The notes under the pieces are model-generated. The model saw only the letters and a list, made by a program, of their open reading frames with translations. It was not told the origin of the DNA and searched no databases. This document shows, in pieces, positions 1-18,556 of a stretch of 64,000 nt of DNA. Numbering within the stretch: position 1 is the first letter of the stretch; every line of letters begins with the position of its first letter. The position numbers and the translations under genes were made by a program. This DNA is from Bacteroidota bacterium (lineage in GTDB: Bacteria > Bacteroidota > Ignavibacteria > SZUA-365). The stretch covers positions 208 to 64,207 of the forward strand of contig DAOSDL010000009.1 in the NCBI GenBank assembly GCA_035362335.1. Direction: 5' to 3'.

Positions 1-11
1 CATCGCATACT

Positions 12-849: not shown

Positions 850-1201
850 CCGGATTTCGTCATTTCAGCACCCGTGACACGGGAGGAAGCACAATTTCCG
901 CCTCGCTGCAGAAAGCTCATTGATTCGCGAAACGAGAACAACTCCCTCTCGTCACGTTGCGTCTCTGCTTCTCTGCGACGTTGCGTTCCATTCTTCTGAA
1001 GTCAGAAGGGAATGCAACGAAAAGATGCCAAGGCGCAATGACAGAAAGTAATGGCTATTCTCACGAGCCCTGTCGTTTTGTGAAATAGACGCCTACGCCC
1101 TGATATCGCTATTGCAGCACCCAGATCACAAGCGGAGCCCCCGTAAGTCATTGAAAACAATGATTCACATTTGCAATCCTGAAAAGCGTGGCGAAATCAG
1201 G
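850..1201. repeat. MITE-like element copy A (~350 bp, with ~90-bp internal insertion/partial duplication). Termini CCGGATTTCGTCA...GCGAAATCAGG.
   Basis: Near-identical to 2369-2624 over ~250 bp. Terminal inverted repeats are CCTGATTTCGCCA / TGGCGAAATCAGG. Contains stem-loop CATTCTTCTGAagTCAGAAGGGAATG. Confidence 0.6.
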
Positions 1202-1245
1202 AATATCGGCACGGGATGCTCGCGTCTGGTCTTGGACTTGGTCAG

Positions 1246-2360
1246 GGCTATTCACTGAATATGTCGACCGGAACAGTACGACCTCCATGACGGGATCAAT
1301 TTCGCGTGAGCGAAACCGATGACGTCGGCGCGGAGGCCAAGGATCGGGATTTGGCTATTCAGTGAATATGCCAGCTGATGCCGCTGGTAAGGGCCGAGGT
1401 TCCGGGCTTGGCTATTCAGTGAACATGCCAGCTGATGCCGCTGGCGAGGGTCGAGGTCCTGGGTTTGGCTATTCAGTGAATATGCCAGCTGATGCCGCTG
1501 GCGAGAGCCGAGATCCCGGGCTTGGCTATTCAGTGAACAACCCACGCCCTGAGCGGAAAGGCGGAGCGGGCGGGCCAGGATTAGGCTATTCACTGAATGA
1601 CCCACGCTCGGCGCGGAAAGACGGAGCGGGCGACGGGGATTTGGCTATTCAGTGAACATGCCAGCCGATGCCGCTGGCGAGGGTCGAGGTCCCGGGCCTG
1701 GCTATTCAGTGAACAACCCACGCCCTGAGCGGAAAGGCGGAGCGGGCGGGCCAGGATTTGGCTATTCAGTGAACATGCCAGCCGATGCCGCTGGTAAGGG
1801 TCGAGGTCCCGGGCTTGGCTATTCAGTGAACATGCCAGCCGATGCCGCTGGCGAAGGTCGATGTCCCGAGCTTGGCTATTCAGTGAACAACCCACGCCCT
1901 GAGCGGAAGGACGGAGCGGGCGGGCCAGGATTTGGCTATTCACTGAATGACCCACGCTCGGCGCGGAAGGCGGAGCTGTCGGGCCAGGATTTGGCTATTC
2001 ACTGAATGACCCACGCTCGGCGCGGAAGGCGGAGCTGTCGGCGGGGATTTGGCTATTCAGTGAATATGCCAGCCGATGCCGCTGGCGAGGGTCGAGGTCC
2101 CGGGCTTGGCTATTCAGTGAACAACCCACGCTCAGCGCGGAAAGGCGGAGCGGGCGGGCCAGGATTTGGCTATTCAGTGAACATGCCAGCCGATGCCGCT
2201 GGCGAGGGCCGAGGTCCCGGGCTTGGCTATTCAGTGAACAACCCACGCCCTGAGCGGAAGGCGGAGCGGGCGGCGGGGATTTGGCTATTCAGTGAATATG
2301 TCGGATGGGGATACTCGCGCCTGATCTCGGATTCGGACTTGGCTATTCACTGAATATGTC
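1246..2360. repeat. Tandem array 1: ~19 copies of a 56-60-bp unit with conserved 22-bp core GGNTTGGCTATTCA(G/C)TGAA(C/T)A and recurrent GC-rich ~36-bp 'spacers'
   Basis: Core occurrences at ~1246, 1351, 1408, 1464 ... 2281, 2341. Spacers fall into 3 families. Overlapping ORFs on both strands are frame-broken, so the array is non-coding. Confidence 0.85.
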
Positions 2361-2368
2361 TGGCCGAA

Positions 2369-2624
2369 CCTGATTTCGCCATTGCAGCACCCGAGACACG
2401 GGAGGAAGCACAATTTCCTCCTCGCAGCAGAAAGCTCATTGATTCTCGAAACGAGAACAACTCCCTCGCGTCACGTTGCGTCTCTGCTTCTCTGCGACGT
2501 TGCGTTCCATTCTTCTGAAATCAGAAGGGAATGCGACGAAACGACGCCAAGGCGCAATGACGGAAATAAGTCATTGATAACAATGATTCACATTGGCAAT
2601 CCCGAAAATCGTGGTGAAGTCAGG
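2369..2624. repeat. MITE-like element copy B (256 bp) with 13-bp terminal inverted repeats
   Basis: Starts CCTGATTTCGCCATTGCAGCACCCG and ends GTGGTGAAGTCAGG (reverse complement of the start). Direct-orientation duplicate of 850-1201. Confidence 0.6.
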
Positions 2625-3012: not shown

Positions 3013-3113
3013 GTCGTACTCCGTTCATCGTTCCATTCAACGGACATCGTATCGTGTGCCGGCCGATGTCGCCTGCGTTATGCATGTCGGATGCGCGGAG
3101 TGCGCGGGGAGAT

Positions 3114-3401: not shown

Positions 3402-3942
3402 TGCGTAAAAACGCCCGGGCGCGGTGCAGACGCGATTTCACGGCAGGCACGCTGAGATTAGTGATGCTGCTCACTTCCTCCGTCGACAGGCCCTCGATGT
3501 CCCGCAGGACGAAAATCACCTTGTACTCGGGAGCGAGTTTGTCTATGGCCGCGTCGAGATGTTGTTTGAGATCGGCGCGCTCCACCGCCGCCTCGGGATC
3601 GTGATCCCAATGATCGACGGCGATATCCGGGTAGTTGCCTTCGTCGTCGTCGAGCGAGACGTGGCGACGCGATTTCTCGCTGCGGGCCAGCATCAGGCAG
3701 TGATTGGACACGATGGTGTACAACCAGGTGCTGAATTTCGAGCGATTGTCGAATTGCTTCAATTTCTTGAGCACACTCATGAAGGTTTCCTGCGTGGTGT
3801 GCTCGGCCTTGTCCTGATTGCGGCAGATGTTGTACGAGAAACGAAAGATCACCGGCGCGTACTCGTCCACCAGTTGCCGTATCGCTCGTGCGTCTCCTTG
3901 CTTGGCTTTCTCGATGACTTCGACTTCGTCTTCAGCGCTCAT
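3361..3942 (-). CDS. ECF-family RNA polymerase sigma-70 factor
   Basis: Region 2 and region 4 motifs (..YAPVIFRFSYNICRNQDKAEHTTQETF.., ..LSTEEVSSITNLSVPAVKSRLHRAR..). Confidence 0.85.
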   Translation of the reverse strand: MSAEDEVEVIEKAKQGDARAIRQLVDEYAPVIFRFSYNICRNQDKAEHTTQETFMSVLKKLKQFDNRSKFSTWLYTIVSNHCLMLARSEKSRRHVSLDDDEGNYPDIAVDHWDHDPEAAVERADLKQHLDAAIDKLAPEYKVIFVLRDIEGLSTEEVSSITNLSVPAVKSRLHRARAFLRNELSPVFDEQQDG

Positions 3943-4032
3943 ACATGTGATGCCCGTGAGTGGGAAATGATTCGAATGAGAAACATACGGAATTCCCCGC
4001 TGCGGAGGTACGCGAATCCTCGTGCCTCGCGA

Positions 4033-4749
4033 TCATTCCAGCAACCATGCCGCCTCGCGCAGCAAACGCCGCTGCGTCCGATACTCCGGGCAATGCCGTT
4101 CCACCAGCGCCCAGAATCGTCGGGAGTGATTCAGTTCTACCATGTGCGCAAGTTCATGCAGCAGCACATAGTCGCTGAGCGACTCGGGAAGGCAGACGAG
4201 CAGGGCATTGAGACTGATGCTTCTCTGCGCGGAACAACTCCCCCATTTCGTCGTCTGTTTGCGCACGGTCACGCGCGTCGGTTGTCTGGAAAAATTCTCC
4301 GCCAGCAACATGATGCGCCGTGTGAGATACCAGCGCGCGTATTTGCGCAGCCATTGCTCGAAAATGGAGCGGACCACCGCCTCCTCGTCGTCAAGCCCTG
4401 TCGGCAGGTCGATCAAAAAGTCCCTTCCCTCCAAGCGCAAGCGGGCCTGGGCGGAATGCCATTGCCGCACAGTGATGCGATGCGGTACGCCGTGCAAAGG
4501 AAACTCGTCACCGTCGCGATAGCGTAGTGTACGCTGACTCCGCGCCTGTTCCTCGAATTCGCGCAGCTTACCGGCGATCCACGCCGCTTTTTCCCGCACC
4601 AACGCATGCATGGCGGCTTCGGGACATCCGCGAGGCGCGGAGACACGCACGCCGGTACGCGCGGACACGGTGATGCGGATGTTTTTATTCTTCCGCGTCT
4701 TCAGTACGCGATACGCGATGTCGACATCCCCGTGGCGAATACTGAACAC
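4033..4749 (-). CDS. YgjP/DUF45-like zinc metallopeptidase (M48/WLM superfamily)
   Basis: HELAHMVELNHSRRFW (HExxH...H) near the C-terminus. ~240 aa. Confidence 0.65.
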   Translation of the reverse strand: MFSIRHGDVDIAYRVLKTRKNKNIRITVSARTGVRVSAPRGCPEAAMHALVREKAAWIAGKLREFEEQARSQRTLRYRDGDEFPLHGVPHRITVRQWHSAQARLRLEGRDFLIDLPTGLDDEEAVVRSIFEQWLRKYARWYLTRRIMLLAENFSRQPTRVTVRKQTTKWGSCSAQRSISLNALLVCLPESLSDYVLLHELAHMVELNHSRRFWALVERHCPEYRTQRRLLREAAWLLE

Positions 4750-4758
4750 CGCTGGGCC

Positions 4759-5385
4759 TCAGCGCTTGGTGCATACGAGCAAACCGTCGCGCAGAGGGAG
4801 AATCATCGCATCGCAGGCGGGATCGGCAAAGGCCATGCGATTCAATTCCACCACGCCCCGTGTTGAAGCGCTGTCGTCGCCTTCGAGCATGCGCCCGCTC
4901 CACAGCGCATTGTCGAATATCAGCAAGCCGCCGCGACGCACGCGGGGAAGCGCCGCGCGGTAGGCGTCCGGATACTCGTGCTTGTCGATGTCGCAGAAGA
5001 TCATATCGAACATACCCTCCACTGTCGAGAATACCGTCAGCGCATCGCCCACGTGCATGGTGATGTTCTCTTCCACGCCGGCGCGCGCGAAGGCCTCGCG
5101 CGCCCGTCGGGCATTCTCCGCATCGCCATCGGTGCAGATGATGCGCGCATCGGCGTGCAGGGCCGCGGCAACATGCAAGGCCGAGTACCCGAAGCCCGAC
5201 CCCAGCTCCATGACCCGGCGCGCGTCGATCAGCGTTGCCAGGCGCGCGATAGCCACTCCGGCGAGCGGGCCGATGATGGGGAAGCGATGTTCCGCCGCCC
5301 AGGCCTCCATTTCCCGCAGCACTTCGGAGCGCTGCGGCAGCAGTTCCAGCATGTAGTGTTCGATTCGCTCATCGACAATGCGCAT
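4759..5385 (-). CDS. Class I SAM-dependent O-methyltransferase (caffeoyl-CoA OMT-like, family 3)
   Basis: VMELGSGFGYSALHVA SAM-binding motif. ~208 aa, typical family-3 OMT size. Confidence 0.75.
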   Translation of the reverse strand: MRIVDERIEHYMLELLPQRSEVLREMEAWAAEHRFPIIGPLAGVAIARLATLIDARRVMELGSGFGYSALHVAAALHADARIICTDGDAENARRAREAFARAGVEENITMHVGDALTVFSTVEGMFDMIFCDIDKHEYPDAYRAALPRVRRGGLLIFDNALWSGRMLEGDDSASTRGVVELNRMAFADPACDAMILPLRDGLLVCTKR

Positions 5386-5559
5386 CGCTTGTCCTTTCCA
5401 TTTGCCTGTGCCGTGAAAATAAAACGCCCCTCCACCGCTGACCGCGCTTCGCCGTCCCCCGGTGCAAGTAGTGAGGAATGGTTCTCATGCGACGGTCCCT
5501 TTCACGACGATGGCAGGGGCAGGGGGACGACGAATTTTCACTCTAACAGCGCTATGCCT

Positions 5560-8500
5560 CTATTTGGCCAGCACCATCGAAATCATGCGTACATACGATC
5601 CGCTCCGCAGGCGCGTGATATACACGCCGCTCGGCAAGGCGCTGCCGTCGAAATGTACACGATGGGTTCCTTCTTGCAGTGGTCCGTCATGCAGCACTCG
5701 TACGACGCGGCCATGCATATCCAACACTTCCAGCACGCCCGGCATTCCCGTCAAGGCATCGGAAACCACGTACTCGATCACCGTGACCGGGTTGAAGGGA
5801 TTCGGTGCATTTTGTCGGAGGAACAGGTCGCTTTTCAACGGCTCGATGCAATCACCCGACACGGTGATCAGCCCGTCGCTGTACACCACGGCGATGCCCG
5901 GTCCGAAGTCCGGAGTACCCGCGAAGAGCACCGGGTAACGGAACACCCCGAAGGCGCCGTCCCTGCCCTTTTGCGGCAACAGCAGGCATCGCAGCGAGAA
6001 CAACACGCCGTCATCAACAATGGGCGTACCCGAAGCGCCATCGATTGTCACACCGGTTGCGGTTTCGTTCATGGCCAACGGCCAACCCGCGGCGAGCGCG
6101 CCTTCCTTCTTCACTTCCAGAATGCGGACGGCGGCGGGGTCGACGTCGATGCGCATGGACATGCGCCGCAGCAGCGCGCGTCGGGGATTGCTGAATCGCA
6201 CCGGCACTGTCACCTCGCGTCCCATCATTCCGACGATATCCTGCGGCATGCTCAACAGCACCACCAGCAAACGCGACTGCACGAGTATGGACTGCGCGCA
6301 TTCCACTGAGCTGGTCTGATCGCTATTCACGATACAGCGAATCGTACTCAGTACATCGTCATCGCCGCCCGAGGGAACGCAGGTGAAGGAGAGCACGCCC
6401 GTGGCGCCCGGCTGCAAGTCCACACCGAGCACTTTGACCGGGGTTTCTCCGGTATTCAACGTGATATTCGCCGGCAGCATGAGCATGCCCGAAATACCTG
6501 TCAACGTGCGATTGCCATTGTTGTGAATACGCACCGTTACCGTAAATGGCGAGGGCACGTACGTATCGCTGCCGGCATCGTAACGGATGGTGTCGGGAAT
6601 GTCGCAATCGATAGCCAGCGAGGCGCTGTCCACGATCGGCGGGTGATGGAGCAGAATATCGCTGCCGCATTGCCGAGACGAGGCGGCGTCGGCGGTGACG
6701 GTGACGACGGGACGCAGTATTGTGCTGGCGCTTTGCGGCGCCGCCCGCAACAGCCATCCGATGGTGGCTATTTCACCGGGAGCGAGATCCACGCCCAGTG
6801 GCTTGGTGTAGCTTTCGCCCGCTTCCACCGATGCGATGGAGGGAAGCGAGAGCGTCGCGCGGATACCGCGCAGCGTGGTCGATCCGGTATTTTGAATTTC
6901 CACGGTGAATGAAAACGGTGCGGGGCGATAGCCCTGCGAGGCGCCAATGAACCAGAGTGTATCGGGCGCATCACAGCGTACGACAAAACCCGTGGGCTGC
7001 GGCGGAGCCGGCATCAGCGTCACCGACGCGGTACACTGCTGCAAATCGCCGCCAGCATAGGCGCGGACACGGAATATACGCGACCGCGGTACTGTGGCGG
7101 TATCGACCAGCATGCGCACATGCCATATCGCATTCGCGGAGGTACCGGCAGCGATGTTCCGCAGCACGATATCCAATTGCTCGCCGCTTTCGAGCTGTGC
7201 CCCTTGCGGCAGTTGGAGCGTTGCCACAACGGAGTCCAGCATGACGGGAGAAGGATTGCCAATCCGCGCCGACACCGTCAGCAGCGGATACAATCCAGAT
7301 TGCTCATCCACGCGCAGTGTATCCATATCGAGCGCGCATTGCACATCGAAGCTCGCCTCTTCCAGCGCGGGAATGCGCACCATGGTACAACAACGCTCGG
7401 GCGCGAGCCCGCGGGCGGCGCTCTCTATACAGACTGCTACAGAATCGACCTGCATGCCGCGTTGTACAACTGCTTTCCATGTGGCGGTGAACTGCGCTCC
7501 CGGAGCCAGAACGCCGACATCGATCACGGGAAGGGGCGTCTCGGCCGTAAGCCGGAGACGCTGCGGCACTTCGATACGCAGATTGCCCTGATAAGCGGAA
7601 GCGCTGCCCACATTGCGCAGCACCGCGCTGATCACCACGGTGTCGTCCTCGCCAGCCTGTTTGAGCAGTTCGCAACTCAGGCGCAACTGCGGCATGCGGG
7701 CGGCGGGGATGTGAATTTCCACCGGGCAGGGTGCGGTCTGTTGCAGAGTTTTTCCCTTGGCCTTCACCTGCACGAGCACCGTATCCATGCGCGCAACCGA
7801 GCGCGGCGTGGCGCGCAGCCACCAGCGCGCATTGCCCGTCTCGCCCACGGCGAGTGTGGATGGCAGCAGCATTTTCGCGGCCTGCTCGCCGGTGGCCATG
7901 GTCATATCGGGAGGCGGCAGGATTTCCGCGACCACCGAATCGGCGAGAGCAGTACCGATATTACGCACATCCACCGACACCAGGAAGGGCTCGGGCATGT
8001 ACCCGGCCAGCGAGTCCACGAAGTGCAGGGAGTCGGGTCCGGCACAGGCGAGTTCGAGCACGGGTCCTTTCACCGCTTCGATAAACATGCGCTTGGCACA
8101 CAAGGTCCCGCCACCGTTGGCCGCGAACACCGTGATTTTCACCGTGTCGTGCCTCGCATTGTCGCGATCGAGTACGCGCAAACGGAAGGAGCCTTCCACC
8201 GAAGCACCGGCGGCGAGAGAATCGCTCAACAATTTGAACGGTTGGTCGCTGCCGTCGATGGACAAATCCTCGCCCTGAAGCAACGCGGCGGTCACACCCT
8301 TGGCTGGAGTTGTGCCGTTGTTGGTCACACGCACGCGCACCGTCATGGGATTCGGATCGTATGCGCCGTCGATATACCGCACCGTATCCGGACCCTCCAC
8401 TGTGCAGGCGAGCGAGGGAATGGCATTGTCCACAATCACATCGAGCGGCGTGCAGCACTGCGCACCGGCAAAATTTTCGGCGGTGACATTCACGCAAATG

Positions 8501-10830
8501 GAAGAGGGCAATACCGGCTGGCCGCGCAACTCCACCACCCACATCACCACACCGCTATCGCCCGGGAGAATCACCGCACCGTTCGGAAAATCCTTCGACG
8601 CAAAATCCGACGAACCCAGTCGGGCAAAGGATGGCAACTGAATATGCGCACGCGCGCCCGTCATGTTCAGGGCCGACACGTTGCGCACCGTAGTGCTGAT
8701 AAACAGATACGCCGGATCGTAATTCCCCGAGCCGTCGTCGAAGCGCACCACGCGCGTATCTGTGCACAGCATGCGCGCACGCACAGGCGAGGCGGTAATG
8801 AACAGCTCCTGACAACATTCAGCGGTATCGCCTCCCACGGCAACCTTGATACAGAACCGCAACAGGTCCGATGTCGTACGCTCGAGCGGACGCACATACC
8901 ACAGCACGTAGCCGGAGTCGTTGCGCGTCAGCGTACCGGGTGCGACGAAGGTGTTGACCGGCGTGGTACTATCCACGACGAATCCCTGCGGCACATGAAT
9001 CCACGCCGCCACATCCCGCGCTGCGAGGTCACTGTGATTTGTCACGAGCACGCGCACGGGGAAGCGATCGGGAACGAAGGAATTCAGACTGTCACTCCAC
9101 TCGATGCGATTGATAAAATCGCATTCCACGCGGAGCTTCGGATAGGCCTTCTCCACCAGCACTTCGGTGCAGCACCGCGTGATCTGCCCGCTGTCGGGTT
9201 GCACCTCCACGCAAATGGAGAGGCGTCGCTCCCTGTCCGCCGGCAGCATGCGCAAATCGAAGGAGGCGTATTCGGTGGCACCCACCGGGAGTTCGGTGGC
9301 ACTGAGATAAATTTCGTTTGACGGTGAAATCAATTCCACGCCATCAGGGACGTCGATACGCACGCGGGTATTTTTCGCGGTAAGCACACCCGGATTGCGC
9401 ACGGTGACAGAGACGCGGAAGTATCCATTATTGTAGCGTCCCTCGTTGCGATCCCAGGTGATGCGCAAGGTGTCCTCGCACACCGCGCTGAGTTTCGGGC
9501 GTTGAAGAATGGCGACGTTGGTGGTTCGGGCCAGTAGACGGAGGCATTCCACCGTTGTTTTATCGAGGAAAAACGCCGGATACACGAAGCTGGTATCTTT
9601 CGTCAGCGTGCCGGGAGTGGAGTAGCGCAGCACCAGCAGAGTATCGCGATTTCCGCTGAGTGCAAGCGGTCCGGTAAGTTCGCAGATCACCGAATCCACC
9701 ACCCGACCAAAAATTGCAGTCATCTTCTCGGCCACATACCCTGTGGTCACAATACCCTTGTACTGCAGCGGTGCGCGTTCGAGTACTTTGAAGTTGAGAT
9801 GATTCAGCGTGGCACCCGCCGGTCCTTCGATCATCACGGGTATGCGCATCTCGCCGCCGGCATAAGCGAAGGTGGAGTCGAATGACACTTTGATGTCCGG
9901 TACCGAAGGATGATGCGGCGTACGGAAGCGTACCTCGGCGGTATCGGCCACACCACAGGCCTCGGCGATCACCCGCAACTCGCGCATCGATCCATCCGGA
10001 CAATCGGAGGTGTAATTCATGCGGCAATCGTTTGCACCGCCGGTAATCAGGGACATGATCGAAGTGAAGGCCGGCACGATATCGTCCGGATGATTGAGTT
10101 CGATGTACATGCCACCAGTTTGGTCCGCGATCATGCGCATCACATCGAGATCGGCGTTGTCGTCGACATAAGAAAGGCCGAGGCAATACACCGGAATCCC
10201 GGTACTTACTGATCGCAGAATCACGTCCTGGGCAGTAGCGATACTGTTGTTGTCTCCTCCGTCGGAGAGCAACACCACTGCCTTGATTGGATTACTCGCA
10301 TTGGCCGCCACTTCGTTGATGCCCGCGATGACGGCGTCGAACATCGTGGTGACGCCGTAGGGATAAATGTTGCGAATGGCGTCGAACAGCAGGGCGATGT
10401 TGGAGGTCATGCCCTGATGCATGGTGACGTTGTCCCCGAAACTGAAAATCGCCCCTTCGTCGCTGCCGGTTGTGTGATGCTGAAACATTTCCACAAACTT
10501 CCATGCGGCGTCGCGTATGCGAAAGATGCTGGTGCCCGCCACCGAGCCACTGCGATCCAGCACCAGAGCCACGGACATGGGTACAGTTTGCTGCGGGCAG
10601 GTCAAGGATTGCAGCGTGCGCAGTTGACCGTTTTCATAGATGCGCACAGTGAGCTGATTGCCGATGCCGACTTGCTGCCCGCCGCAAAAAGCGCGCACGT
10701 GCACATTGACGGAGGGAAAATTCTGCGTATCCACATGGAGGATGCGGACCTCATTGCCGATTTGTGCCTCGACGAGCACAGGCGGCAGGAACAGCAGGAG
10801 GAGTACGACATACGGGAGCAATCGACTCAT
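5560..10830 (-). CDS. Giant secreted adhesin-like protein: N-terminal VWA domain, ~9 DUF11/CARDB-like repeats, C-terminal T9SS sorting domain
   Basis: Signal peptide MSRLLPYVVLLLLFLPPVLVEAQ. VWA motif VALVLDRSGSV. Repeats show V(R/T)N.G...A....LP.G and end in CC/C motifs. C-terminus SGVYITRLRSGSYVRMISMVLAK. Confidence 0.8.
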   Translation of the reverse strand: MSRLLPYVVLLLLFLPPVLVEAQIGNEVRILHVDTQNFPSVNVHVRAFCGGQQVGIGNQLTVRIYENGQLRTLQSLTCPQQTVPMSVALVLDRSGSVAGTSIFRIRDAAWKFVEMFQHHTTGSDEGAIFSFGDNVTMHQGMTSNIALLFDAIRNIYPYGVTTMFDAVIAGINEVAANASNPIKAVVLLSDGGDNNSIATAQDVILRSVSTGIPVYCLGLSYVDDNADLDVMRMIADQTGGMYIELNHPDDIVPAFTSIMSLITGGANDCRMNYTSDCPDGSMRELRVIAEACGVADTAEVRFRTPHHPSVPDIKVSFDSTFAYAGGEMRIPVMIEGPAGATLNHLNFKVLERAPLQYKGIVTTGYVAEKMTAIFGRVVDSVICELTGPLALSGNRDTLLVLRYSTPGTLTKDTSFVYPAFFLDKTTVECLRLLARTTNVAILQRPKLSAVCEDTLRITWDRNEGRYNNGYFRVSVTVRNPGVLTAKNTRVRIDVPDGVELISPSNEIYLSATELPVGATEYASFDLRMLPADRERRLSICVEVQPDSGQITRCCTEVLVEKAYPKLRVECDFINRIEWSDSLNSFVPDRFPVRVLVTNHSDLAARDVAAWIHVPQGFVVDSTTPVNTFVAPGTLTRNDSGYVLWYVRPLERTTSDLLRFCIKVAVGGDTAECCQELFITASPVRARMLCTDTRVVRFDDGSGNYDPAYLFISTTVRNVSALNMTGARAHIQLPSFARLGSSDFASKDFPNGAVILPGDSGVVMWVVELRGQPVLPSSICVNVTAENFAGAQCCTPLDVIVDNAIPSLACTVEGPDTVRYIDGAYDPNPMTVRVRVTNNGTTPAKGVTAALLQGEDLSIDGSDQPFKLLSDSLAAGASVEGSFRLRVLDRDNARHDTVKITVFAANGGGTLCAKRMFIEAVKGPVLELACAGPDSLHFVDSLAGYMPEPFLVSVDVRNIGTALADSVVAEILPPPDMTMATGEQAAKMLLPSTLAVGETGNARWWLRATPRSVARMDTVLVQVKAKGKTLQQTAPCPVEIHIPAARMPQLRLSCELLKQAGEDDTVVISAVLRNVGSASAYQGNLRIEVPQRLRLTAETPLPVIDVGVLAPGAQFTATWKAVVQRGMQVDSVAVCIESAARGLAPERCCTMVRIPALEEASFDVQCALDMDTLRVDEQSGLYPLLTVSARIGNPSPVMLDSVVATLQLPQGAQLESGEQLDIVLRNIAAGTSANAIWHVRMLVDTATVPRSRIFRVRAYAGGDLQQCTASVTLMPAPPQPTGFVVRCDAPDTLWFIGASQGYRPAPFSFTVEIQNTGSTTLRGIRATLSLPSIASVEAGESYTKPLGVDLAPGEIATIGWLLRAAPQSASTILRPVVTVTADAASSRQCGSDILLHHPPIVDSASLAIDCDIPDTIRYDAGSDTYVPSPFTVTVRIHNNGNRTLTGISGMLMLPANITLNTGETPVKVLGVDLQPGATGVLSFTCVPSGGDDDVLSTIRCIVNSDQTSSVECAQSILVQSRLLVVLLSMPQDIVGMMGREVTVPVRFSNPRRALLRRMSMRIDVDPAAVRILEVKKEGALAAGWPLAMNETATGVTIDGASGTPIVDDGVLFSLRCLLLPQKGRDGAFGVFRYPVLFAGTPDFGPGIAVVYSDGLITVSGDCIEPLKSDLFLRQNAPNPFNPVTVIEYVVSDALTGMPGVLEVLDMHGRVVRVLHDGPLQEGTHRVHFDGSALPSGVYITRLRSGSYVRMISMVLAK

Positions 10831-10887
10831 ACCTTCCTCGAAGAGGTTAATCGACAACAGAATCAGGTGTACAAGGCCGGGCGTTGG

Positions 10888-12243
10888 TCAACGCTCCGGG
10901 CTTTCGTGCGTGACCTTCGGCCATTCGCGCACGCCTTCGGCATCGACGGTGGAAAGAATGAGCGCCGGATGTTCCGGAATTCCATCCGCGATACGAAACG
11001 CGGCGGTGGCGCGCTCGCGAAACGCGACGAGGCTCTCTACTGTCGACGAGCAGAGTCGACACAGTGCTTCGTCCTCAGCGACAGCATCACCGCGTTTTTT
11101 CAATACAATGATGCCCGCAGTGTGATCGACCATGTCGCTCGAACGCCGTCTGCCTGCACCGATTTCCGTCGCGATCATACCAAGCGTACGAGCGTTGATC
11201 CCTTGCACCACTCCAGATCGCGGCGCGGGCACGTCCACCATGGAGCGGGGATTCGGGTAACGGAGAGTATCCTCCACCATGGTCACATCACCACCTTGAG
11301 CGCGGACGAGTGCTAGCCAGCGTTCCCACGCAAGACCCGAACGCACGGTTTCGCGGGCAATCGCCATACCTTCCTCAACGCTTTGGGCCTTCCGTCCTTC
11401 ATGGAGCATCACTCCTGCGAGAGCGTAGGTCACCTCCATGAGATCGGGACTTGAGCGGCCTTGCAGGCAATCCACCACTTCCACTACTTCCAGCCATGAG
11501 CCGATAGCGCGGCCGAGAGGTTCGCTCATATCCGTGATCAGGGCGGTCGTGGTCAGACCGAAGTGCCCGCCGACACGGACCAGCAGACGAGCAAGCTCCT
11601 CCGCCTCTTCCCGTCGTTGCATGAAGGCGCCTTCGCCGGTTTTGACATCGAGCACCAGCGCATCCGCGCCGGTTACGATTTTCTTGCTCATGATACTCGC
11701 CGCAATGAACGGCAAAATCTCCACCGTGGCGGTCACGTCGCGTAGCGCGTACATCCTTTTGTCCAGCGGAACCAGTCCCTCGCTTTGGCCTGCGAGCACT
11801 GCACCAGTTTGATCGAGTATGCGCAGAAACTCCGATGAACCCAGTGTGGTACGGAAGCCTGGAATACTCTCCAGTTTGTCCAGTGTTCCACCGGTGTGTC
11901 CCAATGCTCGACCAGACATCATCGGCACTCGCACACCCGCCGCCGCGACGATAGGTGCCAGCAACAGCGAGGTTTTGTCCCCCACACCGCCGGTGGAGTG
12001 CTTGTCCACCTTCCGGCCCTGTACGCTTGATAAATCCAGCCGTGTACCGGAATCGATGAACAGTTGCGTAAGCAGCAACGCCTCCTGCTCGTCGGGAGGA
12101 TGGAAGTAACTGGCCATGAGAAACGCGGCCATCTGATAGTCCGCAACCTCCCCTGCCAGATATCCGGCAAAGAATTCACGCAGCTCGTCCGACGACAGTG
12201 TCAGTCCGTCACGCCGTTTTCGAATGGTTTCTTGTGGAAGCAT
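10888..12243 (-). CDS. Thymidine/pyrimidine-nucleoside phosphorylase
   Basis: KHSTGGVGDKTSL motif and glycosyltransferase family 3 architecture. 451 aa. Confidence 0.85.
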   Translation of the reverse strand: MLPQETIRKRRDGLTLSSDELREFFAGYLAGEVADYQMAAFLMASYFHPPDEQEALLLTQLFIDSGTRLDLSSVQGRKVDKHSTGGVGDKTSLLLAPIVAAAGVRVPMMSGRALGHTGGTLDKLESIPGFRTTLGSSEFLRILDQTGAVLAGQSEGLVPLDKRMYALRDVTATVEILPFIAASIMSKKIVTGADALVLDVKTGEGAFMQRREEAEELARLLVRVGGHFGLTTTALITDMSEPLGRAIGSWLEVVEVVDCLQGRSSPDLMEVTYALAGVMLHEGRKAQSVEEGMAIARETVRSGLAWERWLALVRAQGGDVTMVEDTLRYPNPRSMVDVPAPRSGVVQGINARTLGMIATEIGAGRRRSSDMVDHTAGIIVLKKRGDAVAEDEALCRLCSSTVESLVAFRERATAAFRIADGIPEHPALILSTVDAEGVREWPKVTHESPER

Positions 12244-12574
12244 CTCTCACATCGCCTATAACGTTTCATGGTAAGAAAACTCCCCTCAATATGCAATGGA
12301 CATCGTGCAGCCCGAAGCCGCCCGGTCCGCCGGGCCGCACGGCATGCCGCGAAGATTCGGTGACTCGTAATGACGATACCATCGGATGGATATCGCTCGT
12401 GAGGCCGTTCGCGCGTCATGCGCACCGCCTCGCCGTTTCACAACCACGAGGTGCGATCGACCCAGCCTTCCCCAGGTGGCAAGCCCTGAGCGCATACAGA
12501 AGTGCATTGCGGGATTCGAACGTCCTGGATATGTTGCACGTTCCATTTCACTTTCATCCATTAGTTGGGAGCTA

Positions 12575-13399
12575 ATGATGCAACTTGAGATACCCTATCG
12601 GCACGCGCGCGCGCGCGGCCACAACTACTCCGAACCCGGCACCTACTGCCTGCGACTCGAAACCGCAGGCGAAGAGGCGTTGTTCGGCGAGGACGGCGAC
12701 GGCGGGCTGCGGCTCAACGCCTTCGCGGAAATCGCCTTCGAGAAGCTCGCCCTCGCCGTGCAGCGTTACCCCTGTCTGCGCCTGGACGCAGCGCGCTTCA
12801 CGCCCGACGCGCTTGAAATCCTTGTGACCATTACCGAGTACCGCAATCACAAGGCGGAGAATCCGGAGCTGTGGGGAAATCGCCTTCGCGCGCGTCGTCT
12901 GATGACCATCCCCATGTTCGTGGGCTTTCTGAAAATGAACAGCGCCCGAGCCATCAACACCGCGCGCGGCACACGTGGACGCGCCGTGTGGAAACGGCGT
13001 TACCACGATTGCATCGTCGCGGAGGCTGGAGAAATCCAGAATATCCGCTGCGCATTCAACGCTGCGATGCAGCGTACGCAGCTCACGCGCGACAAGGCGA
13101 ATCCCTCGGTGCGCAATCTGCGCACCGTGCTGAACGAGGCCTTTGCGCTGTTCGGTGAGGATCACGCCCGGGCACCGCGGTCCGAGGCGCAGCCAACCTC
13201 CGGATTGCTCATGCTCGGCCGCGCGGTGTTCCTGCGAGACACCGTACTGAGATCGCCATCCATGGTTTCGGCATCGTCTCGAACTGGTAAGGGGAAAAAG
13301 AAGCGATCCCCCACGGTAACGGAAATGGTGGACGCCTCGCTGGCGATGCTGCACACCGTGGATCCGGAGGCGATGTTGCTATCGATGGCGCCGGGGTAG
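12575..13399 (+). CDS. IS200/IS605-like (RAYT-like) Y1-transposase-fold protein with degenerate HuH motif. Possibly domesticated.
   Basis: Aligns by eye to IS200 TnpA. GTYCLRLETAG..ALFG matches the YHIVF..AFYG strand. PDALEILVTI replaces the HuH segment (both His lost). FVGFLKMNSARAIN and AVWKRRYHDCIV match FMGYLKGKSSLMLY and FWCRGYYVDTV (catalytic-Tyr region kept). RBS GGAG lies upstream of the ATG at 12575. Confidence 0.5.
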   Translation: MMQLEIPYRHARARGHNYSEPGTYCLRLETAGEEALFGEDGDGGLRLNAFAEIAFEKLALAVQRYPCLRLDAARFTPDALEILVTITEYRNHKAENPELWGNRLRARRLMTIPMFVGFLKMNSARAINTARGTRGRAVWKRRYHDCIVAEAGEIQNIRCAFNAAMQRTQLTRDKANPSVRNLRTVLNEAFALFGEDHARAPRSEAQPTSGLLMLGRAVFLRDTVLRSPSMVSASSRTGKGKKKRSPTVTEMVDASLAMLHTVDPEAMLLSMAPG

Positions 13400-13664
13400 T
13401 GCATCAGGATATAGGACGGGATGGTCCGCGATAGGCCGTCGCATCCGCTTGCTGTAATCGATTGATTTCCGAGTGAGGTCCGAAGCGCCCCGCGGCGATT
13501 CGCGGGAGAGCTATGCGCGGAGGCGGAGGATTTGGGACGTGGGAGTGGTTTTTCCGAGGTTGTCGCGGACGTTCAGCGATTTCGGAGCTTACGGTATTGT
13601 GAAATTCGGGGAAATCGGCTGGGGGGCGGGGCGGTCGAGGGCTGAGATTGCGGGTTCGGGGTGG

Positions 13665-14270
13665 GGATTTGGCTATTCACTGAATAACCCATGCCCGGAT
13701 CGGGAGGCGGCGCGGTCGGCCCGGATTTGGCTATTCACTGAATATCTCAGCCGGGCCGGGGTGCACGGAGACCAGGGTCTGGATTTGGCTATTCACTGAA
13801 TAACCCTGGCCTTGCGACGGGAGGTGGCGCTGTCGGTCCGGATTTGGCTATTCACTGAATAACCCTGGCCTTTGGACGGGAGATGGCGCTGTCGGTCCGG
13901 ATTTGGCTATTCACTGAATAACCCTGGCCTTGGGAGGGGAGGCGGCGCGGTCGGCCCGGATTTGGCTATTCACTGAATATCTCAGCCGGGCCGGGGTGCA
14001 CGGAGACCAGGGTCTGGATTTGGCTATTCACTGAATAACCCTGGCCTTGCGACGGGAGGTGGCGCTGTCGGTCCGGATTTGGCTATTCACTGAATCACCC
14101 ACGCCCTGAGCGGAAGGCTGTGCGGTCGACCCGGATTTGGCTATTCACTCAATATCTCAGCCGGACCGGGGTGCGCGGAGACCAGGGTCTGGATTTGGCT
14201 ATTCACTGAATATGTCAGCTGGCGATGCCCGCGCCGAGTCCTGGTTCCGAGCTTGGCTATTCACTGAATC
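13665..14270. repeat. Tandem array 2: 11 copies of a 58-59-bp unit with core GGATTTGGCTATTCACTGAAT(A/C) and recurrent ~37-bp spacers
   Basis: Core starts at 13669, 13727, 13785, 13844, 13903, 13962, 14020, 14079, 14137, 14195, 14254. Spacer families recur (S2=S6~S9; S3~S4~S5~S7). Confidence 0.85.
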
Positions 14271-14315
14271 ACCCACGCCCTGAGAAGGGTCACGCCTCAC
14301 CCGCGCTTCCACGAT

Positions 14316-14360
14316 TCATCTGTGCTAATCTGTGTAAAATCTGTGCAATCTGTGGTTTTG
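14316..14360. promoter_or_regulatory. Four helically phased ATCTGTG heptamers (iteron-like putative protein-binding array)
   Basis: tcATCTGTGctaATCTGTGtaaaATCTGTGcaATCTGTGg with 9-11-bp spacing. Confidence 0.3.
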
Positions 14361-14525
14361 AAACTCTGCTGATCCGCTCCGACAGTAATCATGGCACACG
14401 CACCATGTTCATTCTCCCGGGTGTGACGAAGGAACATGAAAGACTGTGGTTCCCCCCCCGCAATCCCAACCACGGTCATTGCGCCTTTGCGGCAACGCGT
14501 CTCATTCCCCGCTGCGCTCCCGCAA

Positions 14526-14978
14526 CTATTCCAACTCCATGTCGATGCGCTCGCTCAGTAACACCTTCCCCGCTGCATCAAAACGTACAAGCAGTGCGTC
14601 CGCGTCACTCTCCAGCGTGGCTTCGTAGTAACTGCCGCCTGCGGGTTCCTCCACCTTCATCACATCGTACATCTCGTAAGAGGAGTACTTCCTCGCAACA
14701 GTGGCATGAATCGGCTGCGGGACGTCCGACTGATCGAGATAGATGAGCGTTCCCAGCCACATACCCTTCTCGTCGTAACGCGAACTCAATTCCAACGCGC
14801 CAAGCATGAAGGTGGCGACGAACTCGCCCTCCTCCGTGGCATCCCAAATCACCGCCTCCGCCTTGGGATAGCGCAAGTTCTGCGCCTCCTGCACCGGAAC
14901 AGGTATCTCGATCTGCTGCGCCATCAGCGTGAGAACAAGAGAGAAAAAAAGGGCGAGACTGAATGTGAGCTGTTTCAT
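14526..14978 (-). CDS. Secreted PepSY-like/BLIP-like small protein (hypothetical)
   Basis: Signal peptide MKQLTFSLALFFSLVLTLMAQQ. ~150 aa two-lobed pattern. Confidence 0.45.
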   Translation of the reverse strand: MKQLTFSLALFFSLVLTLMAQQIEIPVPVQEAQNLRYPKAEAVIWDATEEGEFVATFMLGALELSSRYDEKGMWLGTLIYLDQSDVPQPIHATVARKYSSYEMYDVMKVEEPAGGSYYEATLESDADALLVRFDAAGKVLLSERIDMELE

Positions 14979-15464
14979 GGCTGTGCGTATGTATGGAATC
15001 GGCGCGCGCGGGAGAACGGCGTGATGATTTTCATCCGATCCTTTTCTGTTTCGTAATCAGACGCACTGCCCCCGCGCCCGGCCTCCGCGTTCGCGTGACC
15101 GGCATGCAAATATAGATGAGCGAACGCGGCACTATCAAGAGCACCACGCGTGGAGCCAATGTTTACAGGGGGAAAAATCGTTACCACACCGAACCGCATC
15201 CGCATTGCGATTTGCATCGCGCCTTCCCAGCACCTTCGTGGCAGGCATGCGCTGTTCGCAGCATCCCGGCGTATGGAAATGGTGTCGTGCAAAAGATTGG
15301 ACTTTACACATCACCACAAAACCAACAATGGAAATTTCAAAGAATCTAGTTAGAGAAGACCAGGTTGAAGATCGATGATCCTCAGTGGAGAGGCGACAAG
15401 AGGGATCATCCACAGAACCTTTTCCCGTTCAACTCCCCGCACCGTGTACGGGATCTTCACCACT

Positions 15465-16766
15465 TCACGAGTGCGACGACTTCGCGCGTATTTCCGCTTC
15501 CAACTCCGCACGAAAACGCTCGATCGTAAAGCGCACGGGCCAGGCCGCGGCATCGCCGAGGGCGCATACCGTGTTGCCCTCGATGTTGCTCGCCACGCTG
15601 TGTAGCAAATCCAGATCGGCCGAAGCACCGTCTCCATGCTCGAGGCGATGCAGCACCTTGAGCATCCAGCCGGTGCCTTCCCGGCAAGGCGTGCACTGGC
15701 CGCAGGATTCCACTTTGTAAAAATGGGTGATACGCGTCAACACGCGCGTGAGATCGGTATCCTCATCCATCACCATGATGCCGGCGGTGCCGATGGCCGA
15801 ACCCACCTCCTTGAGGGAATCGGCATCCATGCGCACGCCTTCGAGCTGGTCGCCGCGAAGCGGCGGCATGGACGAGCCCCCGGGGATCACCATTTTGATG
15901 CGCTTGCCGCCCGGTACTCCACCCGCTACCTCGTGAATCAGCTCGGTGAGCAACATTCCCGTGGGCAACTCATACACGCCGGGCTTGTTCACGTGTCCGC
16001 TGATGCCATACAGTATCGGACCAGGATGCTTCTCCGCGCCAATGGCTTTGAACCAATCTGGACCGCGATCAATGATCACCGGCACGTTCGCGATGGTTTC
16101 CACATTGTTGATCGTGGTCGGACAACCCCAGAGACCGTACTGCGCGGGGAACGGTGGCTTGACTCGCGGATAGGGTCGCTTGCCCTCGATGGAATTCATC
16201 AGCGACGACTCTTCGCCGCAAATGTACGCGCCTGCGCCGCGGTGCACATAAATATCCATGGCGAAATCGGTGCCAAAGGTCTGTTTCATCCGCTCGCCGA
16301 TGTACCCCCGCTCGTAAGCGTCCTTCACCGCCGCCTCGACCATGCGCACCCAGGTTTCGTACTCGCCGCGAATGTAAATGTACGCCGCACGCAACCCCAA
16401 TGCCCAACCCGCGATGAGTATGCCCTCGATCATGAGATGCGGATTGAACTCGAAAATCTGGCGATCCTTGAACGACCCGGGCTCCGACTCGTCGCCATTC
16501 ACACAGAGATACTTGGGCTTGTCTGTCTCCTTGGGCATGAACGACCACTTGAGCCCGGTGGGAAACGCCGCGCCACCGCGTCCGCGCAGACCCGAGGCCT
16601 TCACGACATTGATCACCTCGTCGGGTGTCATGCCTATGGCCTTGCGAATATGCTGATACCCCCGGTGCTGCTCGTACACATCGATGCGGTGCAGGTCGGG
16701 AATGGAAGGAAGAATGACGGGCTGGTAATCGATCATGGCGTTCGCGCGCTTCATGGCCGGGGTCAC
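15465..16766 (-). CDS. nuoF: NADH-quinone oxidoreductase subunit F
   Basis: GGAAFPTGLKWSF motif for NADH/FMN binding and 4Fe-4S cysteine motif CGQCTPCREG. Confidence 0.9.
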   Translation of the reverse strand: MTPAMKRANAMIDYQPVILPSIPDLHRIDVYEQHRGYQHIRKAIGMTPDEVINVVKASGLRGRGGAAFPTGLKWSFMPKETDKPKYLCVNGDESEPGSFKDRQIFEFNPHLMIEGILIAGWALGLRAAYIYIRGEYETWVRMVEAAVKDAYERGYIGERMKQTFGTDFAMDIYVHRGAGAYICGEESSLMNSIEGKRPYPRVKPPFPAQYGLWGCPTTINNVETIANVPVIIDRGPDWFKAIGAEKHPGPILYGISGHVNKPGVYELPTGMLLTELIHEVAGGVPGGKRIKMVIPGGSSMPPLRGDQLEGVRMDADSLKEVGSAIGTAGIMVMDEDTDLTRVLTRITHFYKVESCGQCTPCREGTGWMLKVLHRLEHGDGASADLDLLHSVASNIEGNTVCALGDAAAWPVRFTIERFRAELEAEIRAKSSHS

Positions 16767-17242
16767 GCCCGGGCCTTCAGATTATCGATGAGTGCATTGA
16801 TGGATTCAGGTGTCAGCTTCTCGTGGTATTCCTTGTTCACCGAGACCACCGGAGCGGTGCCGCAGGAACCGAGGCATTCCACTTCGTGCACGGAGAACAG
16901 TCCGTCGGCCGTGGTCTCGCCGATGCCGATGCCGATCTTGTCTTTGATCGTCTTCAACACCATATCGGATCCGCACAACAGGCAGGAGACATTTGTACAC
17001 ACCTGCAGCTTGTACTTGCCCGTCGGGTGCTGATGGTACATTTCGTAAAATGTCACCACACCTAGCACATTCTCTTCGGGAATGTCGAGCAGCTTCGCCA
17101 CCGAGGTGATGGCTTCGTCGGAAATGTAGCCGTATTTGTCCTGCACCATGTGCAGCACACCCATCACCGCGGCCAAATTGGTCGGGTAGTGGGACCGGAT
17201 TTCCTGAACCTGTTGCAGTTCTTCTTCTGTGAACATGGGCAT
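16763..17242 (-). CDS. nuoE: NADH-quinone oxidoreductase subunit E (24 kDa)
   Basis: 2Fe-2S cysteine motif CLGSCGTAP. 4-nt overlap with nuoF. Confidence 0.9.
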   Translation of the reverse strand: MPMFTEEELQQVQEIRSHYPTNLAAVMGVLHMVQDKYGYISDEAITSVAKLLDIPEENVLGVVTFYEMYHQHPTGKYKLQVCTNVSCLLCGSDMVLKTIKDKIGIGIGETTADGLFSVHEVECLGSCGTAPVVSVNKEYHEKLTPESINALIDNLKARA

Positions 17243-17254
17243 GTACGAGTATGG

Positions 17255-18556
17255 CTATTTGTCGGCCTCGCCCATCACGGGGTCGATGCTGCCGAGCACC
17301 GCGAGAATATCGGACAACAGATGTCCCTTGAGAAGCACCGGCAGGGCCTGAAGGTTGCAGAATGACGGCGATCGAATCTTCAATCGCCACGGGTGGCCTT
17401 CGCCACGGGATACGATATAAAATCCGAGCTGGCCTTTGGAGGATTCGATGGCGTGATACACTTCGCCGGAGGGCGGATTCACACCGAAATTCACAATCAT
17501 GAAATCGTGAATTAGCTCTTCCATGCGCGTGTAAATGCGCTCCTTGCGGGGCAGCACTTTCTTCGGCTCATGCGCGTGCACCGGTCCCGCCGGAATCTTG
17601 TCCATGCATTGAAGCACGATTTTCACGCTCTCCTTCATTTCACGGAGACGCACGTAGTAGCGCGAAAGCGAATCGCATTCGTTCTCCGTGATCACATCGA
17701 AGTCGAGGTCGTTGTACACGAGATACGGCTGGTCGCGCCGTAAATCATGCGCCACGCCGGAACCGCGGAGATTCGGACCGGTGAAGCCCCAGGCCAGAGC
17801 TTGCTCCGCCGTCATGATTCCCGTACCGCGACAGCGGTCGAAGAAAATGCGGTTGCGGTTCAGCAAGCGCTCGCCCTCGTTGAGCCGCTCGGGGAATTGA
17901 TCGATAAACGCGCGAATTGCCGCAAGACCCTCGTCCGTAATGTCCTGTGCAACACCGCCAATGCGGGTGTAGCTGGTGGTGAAACGCGCGCCGATGACGA
18001 GATCGTAGATGTCATGGATTTTCTCGCGCTCGCGGAAACACCACAGCAGCAGTGTCATCGCGCCCACGTCCATGGCCATCACGCCGAAGCCGACCAGATG
18101 TGAGGAAATGCGTGCCAACTCGGCCAGCAACGTACGGATGTACTGCGCACGGGGTGGCGCCTCTATACCCAGCAGCTTCTCCACCGCCAGGATGTAGCCC
18201 ACGTTGTTGTGCACAGGCTGGAGATAGTCGAGACGGTCGGTGTGCGTGATGAATTCGTGATAGGTTTCATTTTCCGCGATTTTTTCATAACCGCGGTGCA
18301 AATAACCGAGTTCGGGCATGGCCGAGACAATGGTCTCGCCATCGAGACGCAACAGGATGCGCAACACCCCGTGCGTGGCGGGATGCGACGGACCCATGTT
18401 GAGAATCATGTCGTTCTCGAGCGGATCGTCGAAAGAGATGTCCGGATCCATGTCGAGCAGCGCCTGGAGCAGCTTTGTACGCTTCTCTTTCGGCGGCAGA
18501 CTCGCCGTCATCACAGGAGCATTGAAAAAATCACCGTCGTGTGCCTGGCTGCTCAT
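17255..18556 (-). CDS. nuoD: NADH-quinone oxidoreductase subunit D (49 kDa)
   Basis: NMGPSHPATHGVLRILLRLDGE motif. Confidence 0.9.
   Translation of the reverse strand: MSSQAHDGDFFNAPVMTASLPPKEKRTKLLQALLDMDPDISFDDPLENDMILNMGPSHPATHGVLRILLRLDGETIVSAMPELGYLHRGYEKIAENETYHEFITHTDRLDYLQPVHNNVGYILAVEKLLGIEAPPRAQYIRTLLAELARISSHLVGFGVMAMDVGAMTLLLWCFREREKIHDIYDLVIGARFTTSYTRIGGVAQDITDEGLAAIRAFIDQFPERLNEGERLLNRNRIFFDRCRGTGIMTAEQALAWGFTGPNLRGSGVAHDLRRDQPYLVYNDLDFDVITENECDSLSRYYVRLREMKESVKIVLQCMDKIPAGPVHAHEPKKVLPRKERIYTRMEELIHDFMIVNFGVNPPSGEVYHAIESSKGQLGFYIVSRGEGHPWRLKIRSPSFCNLQALPVLLKGHLLSDILAVLGSIDPVMGEADK

Follow-up and report, generated by a model that had tools for sequence, protein, structure and literature searches.

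The locus described here raises a question about transposases and repeats: why does a gene resembling those of transposases, yet without their active-site residues, lie directly upstream of a long tandem array of an imperfect palindrome, and what might its product still do? It was found in a stretch of 64,000 nucleotides (hereafter the window) of contig DAOSDL010000009.1 from a Bacteroidota assembly (GCA_035362335.1). The NuoD encoded in the window is ~70% identical to NuoD of Ignavibacteria-type metagenome-assembled genomes (MAGs), and the host lineage is uncultured Bacteroidota. There is very little doubt that the gene is a dead derivative of the tyrosine transposases associated with repetitive extragenic palindromes (REPs), known as RAYTs, with arrays that derive from REPs. 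Beyond this, we consider it likely that the dead RAYT descendant serves as a DNA-binding partner of arrays amplified from its cognate REP palindrome. The gene and the residues on which this reading depends are the following.

12504..12574, + strand: promoter-like region and 5′ untranslated region (UTR), with GCATTGCGGGATTCG, ~12 nt, TATGTTGC, then CGTTCCATTTCACYTTCATCCATTAG and GGGAG (alignment of eight copies)
12575..13399, + strand: gene of a predicted catalytically dead Y1 (RAYT/IS200-like) protein, 274 aa; residues 1-170 Y1 fold, residues ~175-274 C-terminal extension
12809..12811 (A79) and 12815..12817 (E81), + strand: positions of the HuH histidines, by alignment
W139/Y143, + strand: W motif, the WQxxY of the family
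13052..13054 (A160), + strand: position of the nucleophile tyrosine, in IRCAFNAAM, the YIxxNP column

The open reading frame (ORF) at 12575-13399 (+), put forward in a preliminary description of the window, is a real conserved gene of 274 aa with its stop at 13399; the lengths of its 15 close homologs all fall within 271-274 aa. As the conserved start we identify the ATG pair (12575/12578), with a GGGAG Shine-Dalgarno sequence ahead of it at 12567-12571. An alternative longer frame is possible from 12386; we place the start at the ATG pair because the alignment of paralogs begins ~75 nt before it and because of the uniform homolog lengths. Eight paralogous copies of the module are alignable only from that point, and the sequences further upstream are unrelated between copies. 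The block GCATTGCGGGATTCG...TATGTTGC recalls the Bacteroidota -33/-7 promoter and is promoter-like on our own reading of the letters; a sigma-70 promoter scan of the region found none, the sigma-70 consensus being uninformative for Bacteroidota. A defence or phage origin was rejected, as neither PADLOC nor PHROGs gave any match.

Direct searches with the protein gave no significant family match. Pfam returned nothing for the ORF translation, NCBIfam REP_Tyr_transpos reached only E = 0.06, phmmer against PDB sequences retrieved only spurious weak matches to metapneumovirus F protein, and a 15-sequence profile found nothing in the PDB. For this reason, the family could be assigned only with the help of a profile search and a structure model. 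In an exhaustive search, the 15-sequence family profile retrieved 1826 proteins at E <= 1e-3 and reached canonical Y1_Tnp/RAYT proteins at E 1e-24 to 1e-19, among which P0028 and P0032 themselves pass the Pfam Y1_Tnp cutoff. The nearest matches (P0016-P0027, P0029 and P0034; E 1e-38 to 1e-19) are mostly 260-330 aa long, apart from the shorter P0023 (236 aa) and P0034 (194 aa), and have the odd features of the query in common. The next ones (P0028, P0030-P0035 onwards) are ~170-200 aa long and carry the canonical motifs MP[DN]H[VIF]H and [RQE]YIxxNP.

Among solved structures, a 96-sequence profile (A4) matched best 4er8, the TnpA-REP of E. coli (E = 2e-5), followed by ISDra2 and Sulfolobus TnpA; 2xm3, 2ec2 and 2f4f were matched as well. 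AlphaFold2 (AF2) gave an unusable model from a shallow alignment (predicted local distance difference test score, pLDDT, 43), and the 96-sequence alignment was used instead, with a mean pLDDT of 75.9 and values >90 for residues 1-170. The best 30 Foldseek matches of this model in the PDB were all ISDra2, IS608 or Sulfolobus TnpA or RAYT structures (probability 1.0, template modelling (TM) score 0.53-0.67). Resting on both profile and AF2 model, the predicted Y1 fold can be regarded as secure. The RAYT/IS200 kinship that the preliminary description had drawn by eye is thus upheld by the reach of the family profile to Y1_Tnp, by 4er8 as best match and by 30/30 Foldseek structures, while a profile check on the ORF itself, with no Pfam match and an NCBIfam E of 0.06, fails to reveal it; the kinship is reached only via the family profile.

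Several non-catalytic motifs of the family are kept: an N-terminal YSxPG, the helix RRxMTIPxFVGxxKMNSAxxIN and the W motif. The N-terminal motif and the helix had been recognised before, and the helix is indeed conserved (RRxMTIPxFVGFLKMNSA). Motifs shared with canonical RAYT-like proteins form the most conserved part of the protein. A C-terminal extension of ~100 aa (residues ~175-274) follows the Y1 fold, with an LLMLGRAVFL motif and a basic KGKKKR patch.

The active site has fared differently. Where canonical relatives have MP[DN]H[VIF]H, the window protein reads P77-D78-A79-L80-E81, so that the replacement of both HuH histidines, claimed in the preliminary description, holds, with A79 and E81 in those columns. 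The catalytic-tyrosine region was claimed to be kept as 'AVWKRRYHDCIV', and here our alignment disagrees: AVWKRRYHD is the W motif (WQxxY), and the nucleophile belongs to the YIxxNP helix (motif table of PMC6006769), ~17 residues beyond it. This column aligns with Y115 of 4er8, the catalytic residue of E. coli TnpA-REP as judged from the Y115F mutant (PMC8266576), and holds Ala160 in the window protein. The catalytic compromise proposed earlier is consequently stronger than was thought, both histidines and the nucleophile tyrosine being gone, and with all three catalytic residues replaced the protein is predicted to be catalytically dead.

This loss extends well beyond the window. Among 96 aligned sequences, 19 have no His in either HuH column and no Tyr in the YIxxNP column, whereas the three residues are present together in nearly every one of the remaining 77. 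The residues found in the 19 are A/R/C/G/Y/L/Q in the first His column, E/D/I/V/Q in the second and A/G/E/R/Q/M in the Tyr column. The extension with its LLGRAxFL motif is common to all of them but P0034 (18/19), and as judged from the alignment they appear to be a discrete, old clade with a ~100-aa C-terminal addition, referred to below as the dead clade. Only catalytically complete groups are described in the published RAYT classifications that we consulted (PMC6006769, PMC5581495), and our literature searches found no description of a RAYT clade without HuH.

Downstream of the gene lie a leader and the second of two arrays in the window.

13400..13664, + strand: leader between stop and array, 265 nt; G 42%, C 20%, GC skew +0.36; alignable in nine copies with indels of 1-2 nt
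13665..14275, + strand: array 2, 11 units of 58-59 bp, cores 13669-14268, higher-order periods 117, 175 and 235 bp
1244..2355, + strand: array 1 (orphan), 18 units at 1351-2354 and a solitary core at 1244-1260; central base mostly G; no adjoining gene copy

The gene had been placed ~270 bp upstream of array 2, which agrees with the 265 nt between its stop at 13399 and the first unit at 13665. Each unit of array 2 consists of an invariant core, GGATTTGGCTATTCAcTGAAT (an imperfect palindrome, GGCTATTCA-s-TGAATAnCC), followed by ~37 nt that are more variable; written out, the core-bearing stretch of the window unit is GGATTTGGCTATTCACTGAATAACCCA. The cores of both arrays are all on the + strand. 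Counting both strands, 50 copies of the 16-mer core were found where 0.42 would be expected by chance, and ATTCAsTGAAT occurs in the window only inside the two arrays (19/19 occurrences, in direct orientation), with no dispersed copies. Periods are 57-59 bp in both arrays, with higher-order periods of 117-235 bp, and whole 58-bp units are 76-91% alike. The arrays evolve like satellite DNA. Coding repeats (e.g. ORF 1362-1655, GYSVN...) were rejected and the arrays taken as non-coding because a reading frame is not maintained over periods of 57-59 bp. When the 64-kb window was searched with the protein by tblastn, the sole match lay at 12575-13396, and hence no second gene copy or remnant was found beside array 1.

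When 146 units taken from 18 arrays are compared, GGATTTGGCTATTCA-s-TGAAT is near-invariant while the remainder of the unit drifts. This conservation is asymmetric, with a left arm and a 5′ flank (GGATTT) that are invariant and a right arm conserved over only 5 nt, with a recurrent C.A mismatch.

The pairing of gene and repeat recurs wherever it can be assessed. Every one of the 16 distinct close-clade loci for which >=300 bp downstream is available has 3-12 cores, on the gene strand, the first of them 255-273 nt past the stop (16/16); close-clade contigs without an array end too early to judge. A GGCGATTCATGAATCGCC-type palindrome follows the stop at 165-370 bp in every copy with enough flank (16 close loci and 9 distant families), usually in tandem with a period of 20-115 bp; of the 9 distant families, 7 were counted as having it in tandem. 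Searched as GATTCATGAATC with <=2 mismatches, the motif again appears 165-370 bp past the stop wherever a dead-clade locus has sufficient flank, against a density of 0.047 per kb over unrelated loci totalling 618 kb. In the distant families the downstream sequences are as follows.

P0018 (L101): array of 31.5 x 20 bp, CGCCATGGGGTYTCATGAAT
P0020 (L130): array of 3.7 x 115 bp, reaching the contig end
P0022 (L133): array of 3.6 x 42 bp
P0024 (L131): array of 3.2 x 45 bp
P0025 (L119): arrays flanking the gene on both sides, inverted; the only such case
P0019 (L128): two motif copies and an unrelated 58-bp array
P0016 (L098): one motif copy
241-aa ORF (L124): one downstream copy, a 36-bp perfect palindrome
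P0021 (L121): one motif copy

When the motifs of the clade are aligned, their consensus is TGGCGATTCATGAATCnCC; the window motif GGCTATTCA-s-TGAATAnCC is the same palindrome with one arm position changed and one central base extra. A scan of 185,579 species genomes for the core found multi-copy arrays, among the matches listed, only in JAMIQH01, the others being single chance matches. The whole module, from promoter and gene through the G-rich leader (~265 nt) to the palindrome array, is kept across a clade whose proteins are only ~30% identical. The leader sequence itself is unalignable between distant members (loci L001, L002, L018, L080, L098, L128, L130, L131 and L133), while its richness in G-runs persists: GC skew is +0.23 to +0.55 in 10/11 loci clade-wide, whereas the genes themselves show ~0 in the window clade and up to +0.17 in distant relatives. 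A canonical G-quadruplex motif is present in only 4/12 leaders and, unlike G-richness, is not conserved. No conserved ORF was found in the leader, and its RNAalifold covariation term of -0.43 gives no support to a structured RNA; Rfam returned only two chance-level matches on bases 1-16000 of the window. Speculatively, a G-skewed leader might favour strand opening during transcription, or R-loops.

Two of the distant families show further peculiarities. Past the two TTCATGAA-type motifs at the P0019 locus (L128 5230-6063) is an array of 14 x 58 bp (CCCGGCAGGCACGACTCCGTAGCGGTCGCGGCATCGTCTGCGCGAAGCATCAGGCGCA) without the palindrome, whose period equals the 58 bp of the window arrays. The three P0016 loci (L098, L099 and L100) share 99.5-99.96% identity beginning just ahead of the gene, and have three differing neighbourhoods ~240-310 bp upstream (peptidase M16, FTCD and PAS-HisKA); this difference may reflect either a strain-level rearrangement breakpoint at the left edge of the module or an assembly artefact. 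The P0016 5′UTR contains a perfect palindrome, TTCATGTACATGAA, like the downstream motif, and this could be an autoregulatory site.

The origin of the palindrome is indicated by P0028 (172 aa), the nearest catalytically intact relative. Five REP copies flank its gene (consensus GTAGGGCGGATTCATGAATCCGCCCTAC, some slightly degenerate), three upstream, where each unit of a 116-bp tandem contains one, and two downstream, and they are GTAG-tagged. Because these GTAG REPs carry the same palindrome, the arrays of the dead clade are best explained as descendants of the cognate REP of the ancestral RAYT. GTAG is present only in the P0028 REPs; the 5′ flank in the window is GGATTT. Another canonical relative, P0031, for which little flank is available, has a single motif match 5 bp before the gene. 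From its arrangement at P0028, the REP of the ancestral lineage would already have tended to a local tandem arrangement. The claim that the gene is paired with a cognate repeat therefore stands on the 16/16 close loci, the 9/9 distant families and the P0028 REPs with their shared palindrome.

The gene copies are under purifying selection, with dN/dS of 0.14-0.27 in 28 pairs among eight copies and dS of 0.34-0.82; these ratios and the constant length led us to reject a decaying pseudogene. Copies per genome are estimated at 6-7 at least. The gene was counted 6 times in the GTDB representative MAG JAMIQH01, and 7 loci are present in one metagenome assembly, where two share a contig; one NCBI MAG has at least 3 copies, as counted from locus tags of the same prefix. 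Synteny between two species was found at both loci that were checked, L001/L033 (88% nucleotide identity over 5 kb) and L002/L045. From this synteny and the dS between copies, it follows that the modules are vertically inherited, diverged paralogs and not a recently active insertion sequence (IS). Domestication as an array-binding protein, as the preliminary description had it, thus gains on its first half from dN/dS and the two syntenic loci, while array binding itself is something we infer.

Comparison with known systems places the module near the RAYTs and outside their usual definition. It resembles the TnpA-REP 'REPtron' of E. coli (4er8) in its Y1 fold, in its best sequence match among solved structures, in the link of the gene to a co-evolving palindromic repeat and in vertical inheritance without IS-like spread, and P0028, with GTAG REPs on both sides, is a classical case. 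Unlike the REPtron, the window clade lacks the HuH histidines and the catalytic Tyr, has a ~100-aa C-terminal addition and is present in at least 6-7 diverged copies per genome, whereas RAYTs typically have one copy per genome (PMC5581495). In contrast to REPs, REPINs (REP doublets forming hairpins) and bacterial interspersed mosaic elements, the window repeat forms direct tandem arrays downstream of the gene, with no dispersal in 64 kb and no inverted pairs in the window; it has no GTAG (or CGTC) tetranucleotide and its hairpin is weak. The flanking cognate REPs of a RAYT are thus represented here in altered form, as a palindrome always within 165-370 bp downstream, in a direct tandem array. 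In sum, the protein descends from the RAYT/REP partnership yet fails the catalytic hallmarks of the family, the GTAG tag, dispersal and inverted pairs of REPs, and the one-copy habit. With the IS200/IS605 TnpA proteins (IS608, ISDra2) it shares the fold, as the top Foldseek matches indicate, and the imperfect palindromes with a conserved 5′ flank that accompany the gene. Unlike those elements, it has no left-end/right-end structure or identical copies (dS 0.34-0.82), two of its loci are syntenic between species, the catalytic residues are absent and homology begins ~75 nt before the ATG, at the promoter-like region.

Two further systems offer analogies only. In F plasmid sopC, 12 x 43-bp repeats each contain an inverted repeat bound by SopB, and such partition centromeres lie directly after the genes of their binding proteins. 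The functional likeness is that of a palindrome-bearing tandem array directly downstream of the gene of its presumed binder; the two proteins are unrelated in fold, the window locus lacks a gene for a partner NTPase, and our modules are chromosomal and multi-copy. In eukaryotes, CENP-B is a domesticated transposase that binds a box in alpha-satellite DNA. This also pairs an immobile former transposase with satellite repeats bearing its recognition box, albeit in another transposase superfamily and another domain of life, and in our modules the gene adjoins each array. A CRISPR array is similar in that a conserved leader is followed by a 21-nt repeat alternating with ~37 nt of other sequence. 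It was rejected because the 'spacers' are a few types homogenised within arrays; moreover, relatives have 20-bp units without any spacer.

How might a dead RAYT and its array work together? We propose that the protein no longer cuts DNA and would still recognise the palindrome and its invariant 5′ flank GGATTT. A function on the arrays limited to binding is fairly probable on the sequence evidence. Recognition would proceed as in RAYT/TnpA proteins, by a hairpin and a 5′ guide tetranucleotide, and with such a strand-specific mode the expected ligand would be the top strand in single-stranded form. Active relatives bind single-stranded REP hairpins together with a 5′ tetranucleotide (PMC8266576); because of this, of the kept non-catalytic motifs and of the asymmetric conservation of the core, we favour strand-specific recognition of the RAYT type over a symmetric operator. 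The array would offer many adjacent sites to a protein made next door, giving a multi-protein nucleoprotein block at each locus. Its copy number would shift by slippage or unequal exchange and not by transposition, a mode suggested by the near-identical loci L103 and L104, which have 11 and 4 cores, respectively. Candidate roles of the complex are local chromosome organisation, a barrier to transcription or replication, and self-regulation.

Several observations weigh against this proposal. Four orphan arrays have no adjacent gene (array 1 of the window, L079, L017 and L050). Single units, as single-stranded DNA, fold no better than shuffled sequences (z -0.8 to +1.3), and the core hairpin is AT-rich and weak, with a stem of ~-1 to -3 kcal/mol, in comparison with GC-rich REP hairpins; given this weakness, duplex DNA or RNA are also possible ligands. 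The C-terminal third of the AF2 model is of low confidence. The range of the clade is narrow, comprising uncultured Bacteroidota/Ignavibacteria-like MAGs without any attached phenotype, and since the genomes are MAGs, the per-genome copy numbers are estimates.

The alternative that survives best, although we judge it unlikely, has RNA as the ligand: an RRM-like ferredoxin-fold protein would bind palindromes in its own 3′UTR or in a processed array transcript, controlling its own mRNA or making small RNAs, much as a CRISPR leader and array would. This would suit an array that is always on the gene strand behind a conserved leader, the lack of any terminator-like site between gene and array (the sole one comes after the array, in the element Y described below) and a CRISPR-like unit geometry of 21-nt core and ~37-nt variable part. 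It is harder to reconcile with a leader without covariation support, with units that fold no better than shuffles, with the lack of Rfam matches above chance level, and with 'spacers' that are homogenised within arrays instead of unique. The units of distant relatives are 20-115 bp long or reduced to a single palindrome, and known relatives bind single-stranded DNA (PMC8266576).

Somewhat less probable still is a linkage that is historical only, in which the arrays are decaying or neutrally drifting clusters of REPs beside a former RAYT gene and the protein now does an unrelated job. Orphan arrays do persist with no gene beside them, there is free variation in the length of arrays and the sequence of their units, and P0016 keeps a single motif copy, as would be expected under drift. 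Neutral retention would, however, hardly keep the palindrome at a similar distance from the stop across proteins that are ~30% identical, nor a 21-nt core near-invariant in 146 units while neighbouring bases drift, and the non-catalytic motifs shared with canonical RAYT-like proteins are the clade's most conserved part.

That the protein is still an enzyme, nicking and rejoining palindromes and so resizing arrays through a non-canonical site (e.g. an acidic residue in place of the second His to bind the metal, with a different Tyr or Ser acting as nucleophile), seems very improbable: the second His column does hold Glu/Asp in 13/19 clade members, Y17, S18 and S122 are invariant within the dead clade and Y142 nearly so (273-aa numbering; Y143 in the 274-aa ORF), and core number does differ between the nearly identical L103 and L104 (11 vs 4), but the three catalytic columns hold variable, unrelated residues, which indicates relaxed constraint and not a new site, Y17 and Y142 show the same conservation in canonical enzymes, whose nucleophile is another residue, and a change in tandem copy number needs no dedicated enzyme, with no dispersed cores in 64 kb.

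Returning to the dead RAYT as a dedicated binder of its arrays, this arrangement matters because the function of REPs and RAYT transposases for the cell has been debated for decades, and DNA cutting and moving could never be separated from binding. The dead clade would isolate a binding-only function and gives a defined protein/DNA pair for testing the role of RAYT and REP. It further illustrates a path from REPs to tandem 'satellite' arrays in bacteria, and points to CRISPR-like arrays of this class as ones that repeat-finding programs will misreport. A bolder interpretation, which we hold to be possible though doubtful, is that the modules are a previously undescribed chromosomal element: satellite-like arrays, each with a locally encoded dead transposase as its dedicated binder, at many fixed loci and with a host-level function. 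Transcription through the G-rich leader would then expose the top strand, the palindromes would fold and the protein would coat them, giving a strand-specific nucleoprotein barrier or organising centre. If true, this would be a prokaryotic counterpart of CENP-B/alpha-satellite and direct evidence of a non-catalytic cellular role for the RAYT/REP partnership.

Two non-coding elements accompany the arrays of the window.

850..1201, + strand: element X, left copy, non-coding module of ~330 bp with internal hairpins, flanking array 1
2369..2624, + strand: element X, right copy, a direct repeat of the left copy (93% and 90% identity)
14306..14420, + strand: element Y, conserved non-coding module of 115 bp after array 2, with four ATCTGTG repeats 9-11 bp apart (iteron-like)

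Element X also adjoins arrays elsewhere, including those of another species (L050 6660-6989, L079 3581-3908, L109 5006-5233 and 5349-5576); its window copy has no Rfam match. A terminator scan of the region gave a single terminator-like hairpin, at 14390-14407, with which element Y ends; by blastn, the element was found after arrays in L002 (7769-7883), L116/L118 (5269-5383), L103/L104, L109 (twice), L018 and L050. Its first bases, CCACGATTCA, also occur beside the palindrome in the distant P0016 locus.

Other features of the window may be noted. Between arrays 1 and 2, on the - strand, lies an ORF of 1765 aa (5560-10857) with repeated Ig-like segments; on our reading of the translation it has a VWA-like N-terminal region and a C-terminal sorting signal of the type IX secretion system type, which, if right, fits a Bacteroidota host. 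An intergenic heptamer microsatellite at 57375-57421 (GTGAATC/GTTAATC, ~6.7 copies) shares TGAATC with the family palindrome, probably by coincidence. G+C falls from ~0.60 through 0.53 to 0.46 at the window end (60001-64000), and this part may be foreign or recently acquired. Cumulative GC skew falls steadily along the + strand of the window, and most of the genes in bases 1-18000 (nuo genes, large ORF) lie on the - strand. The gene and both arrays sit on the + strand, and this strand may therefore be the lagging-strand template side, a point that would matter if the protein reads single-stranded DNA.

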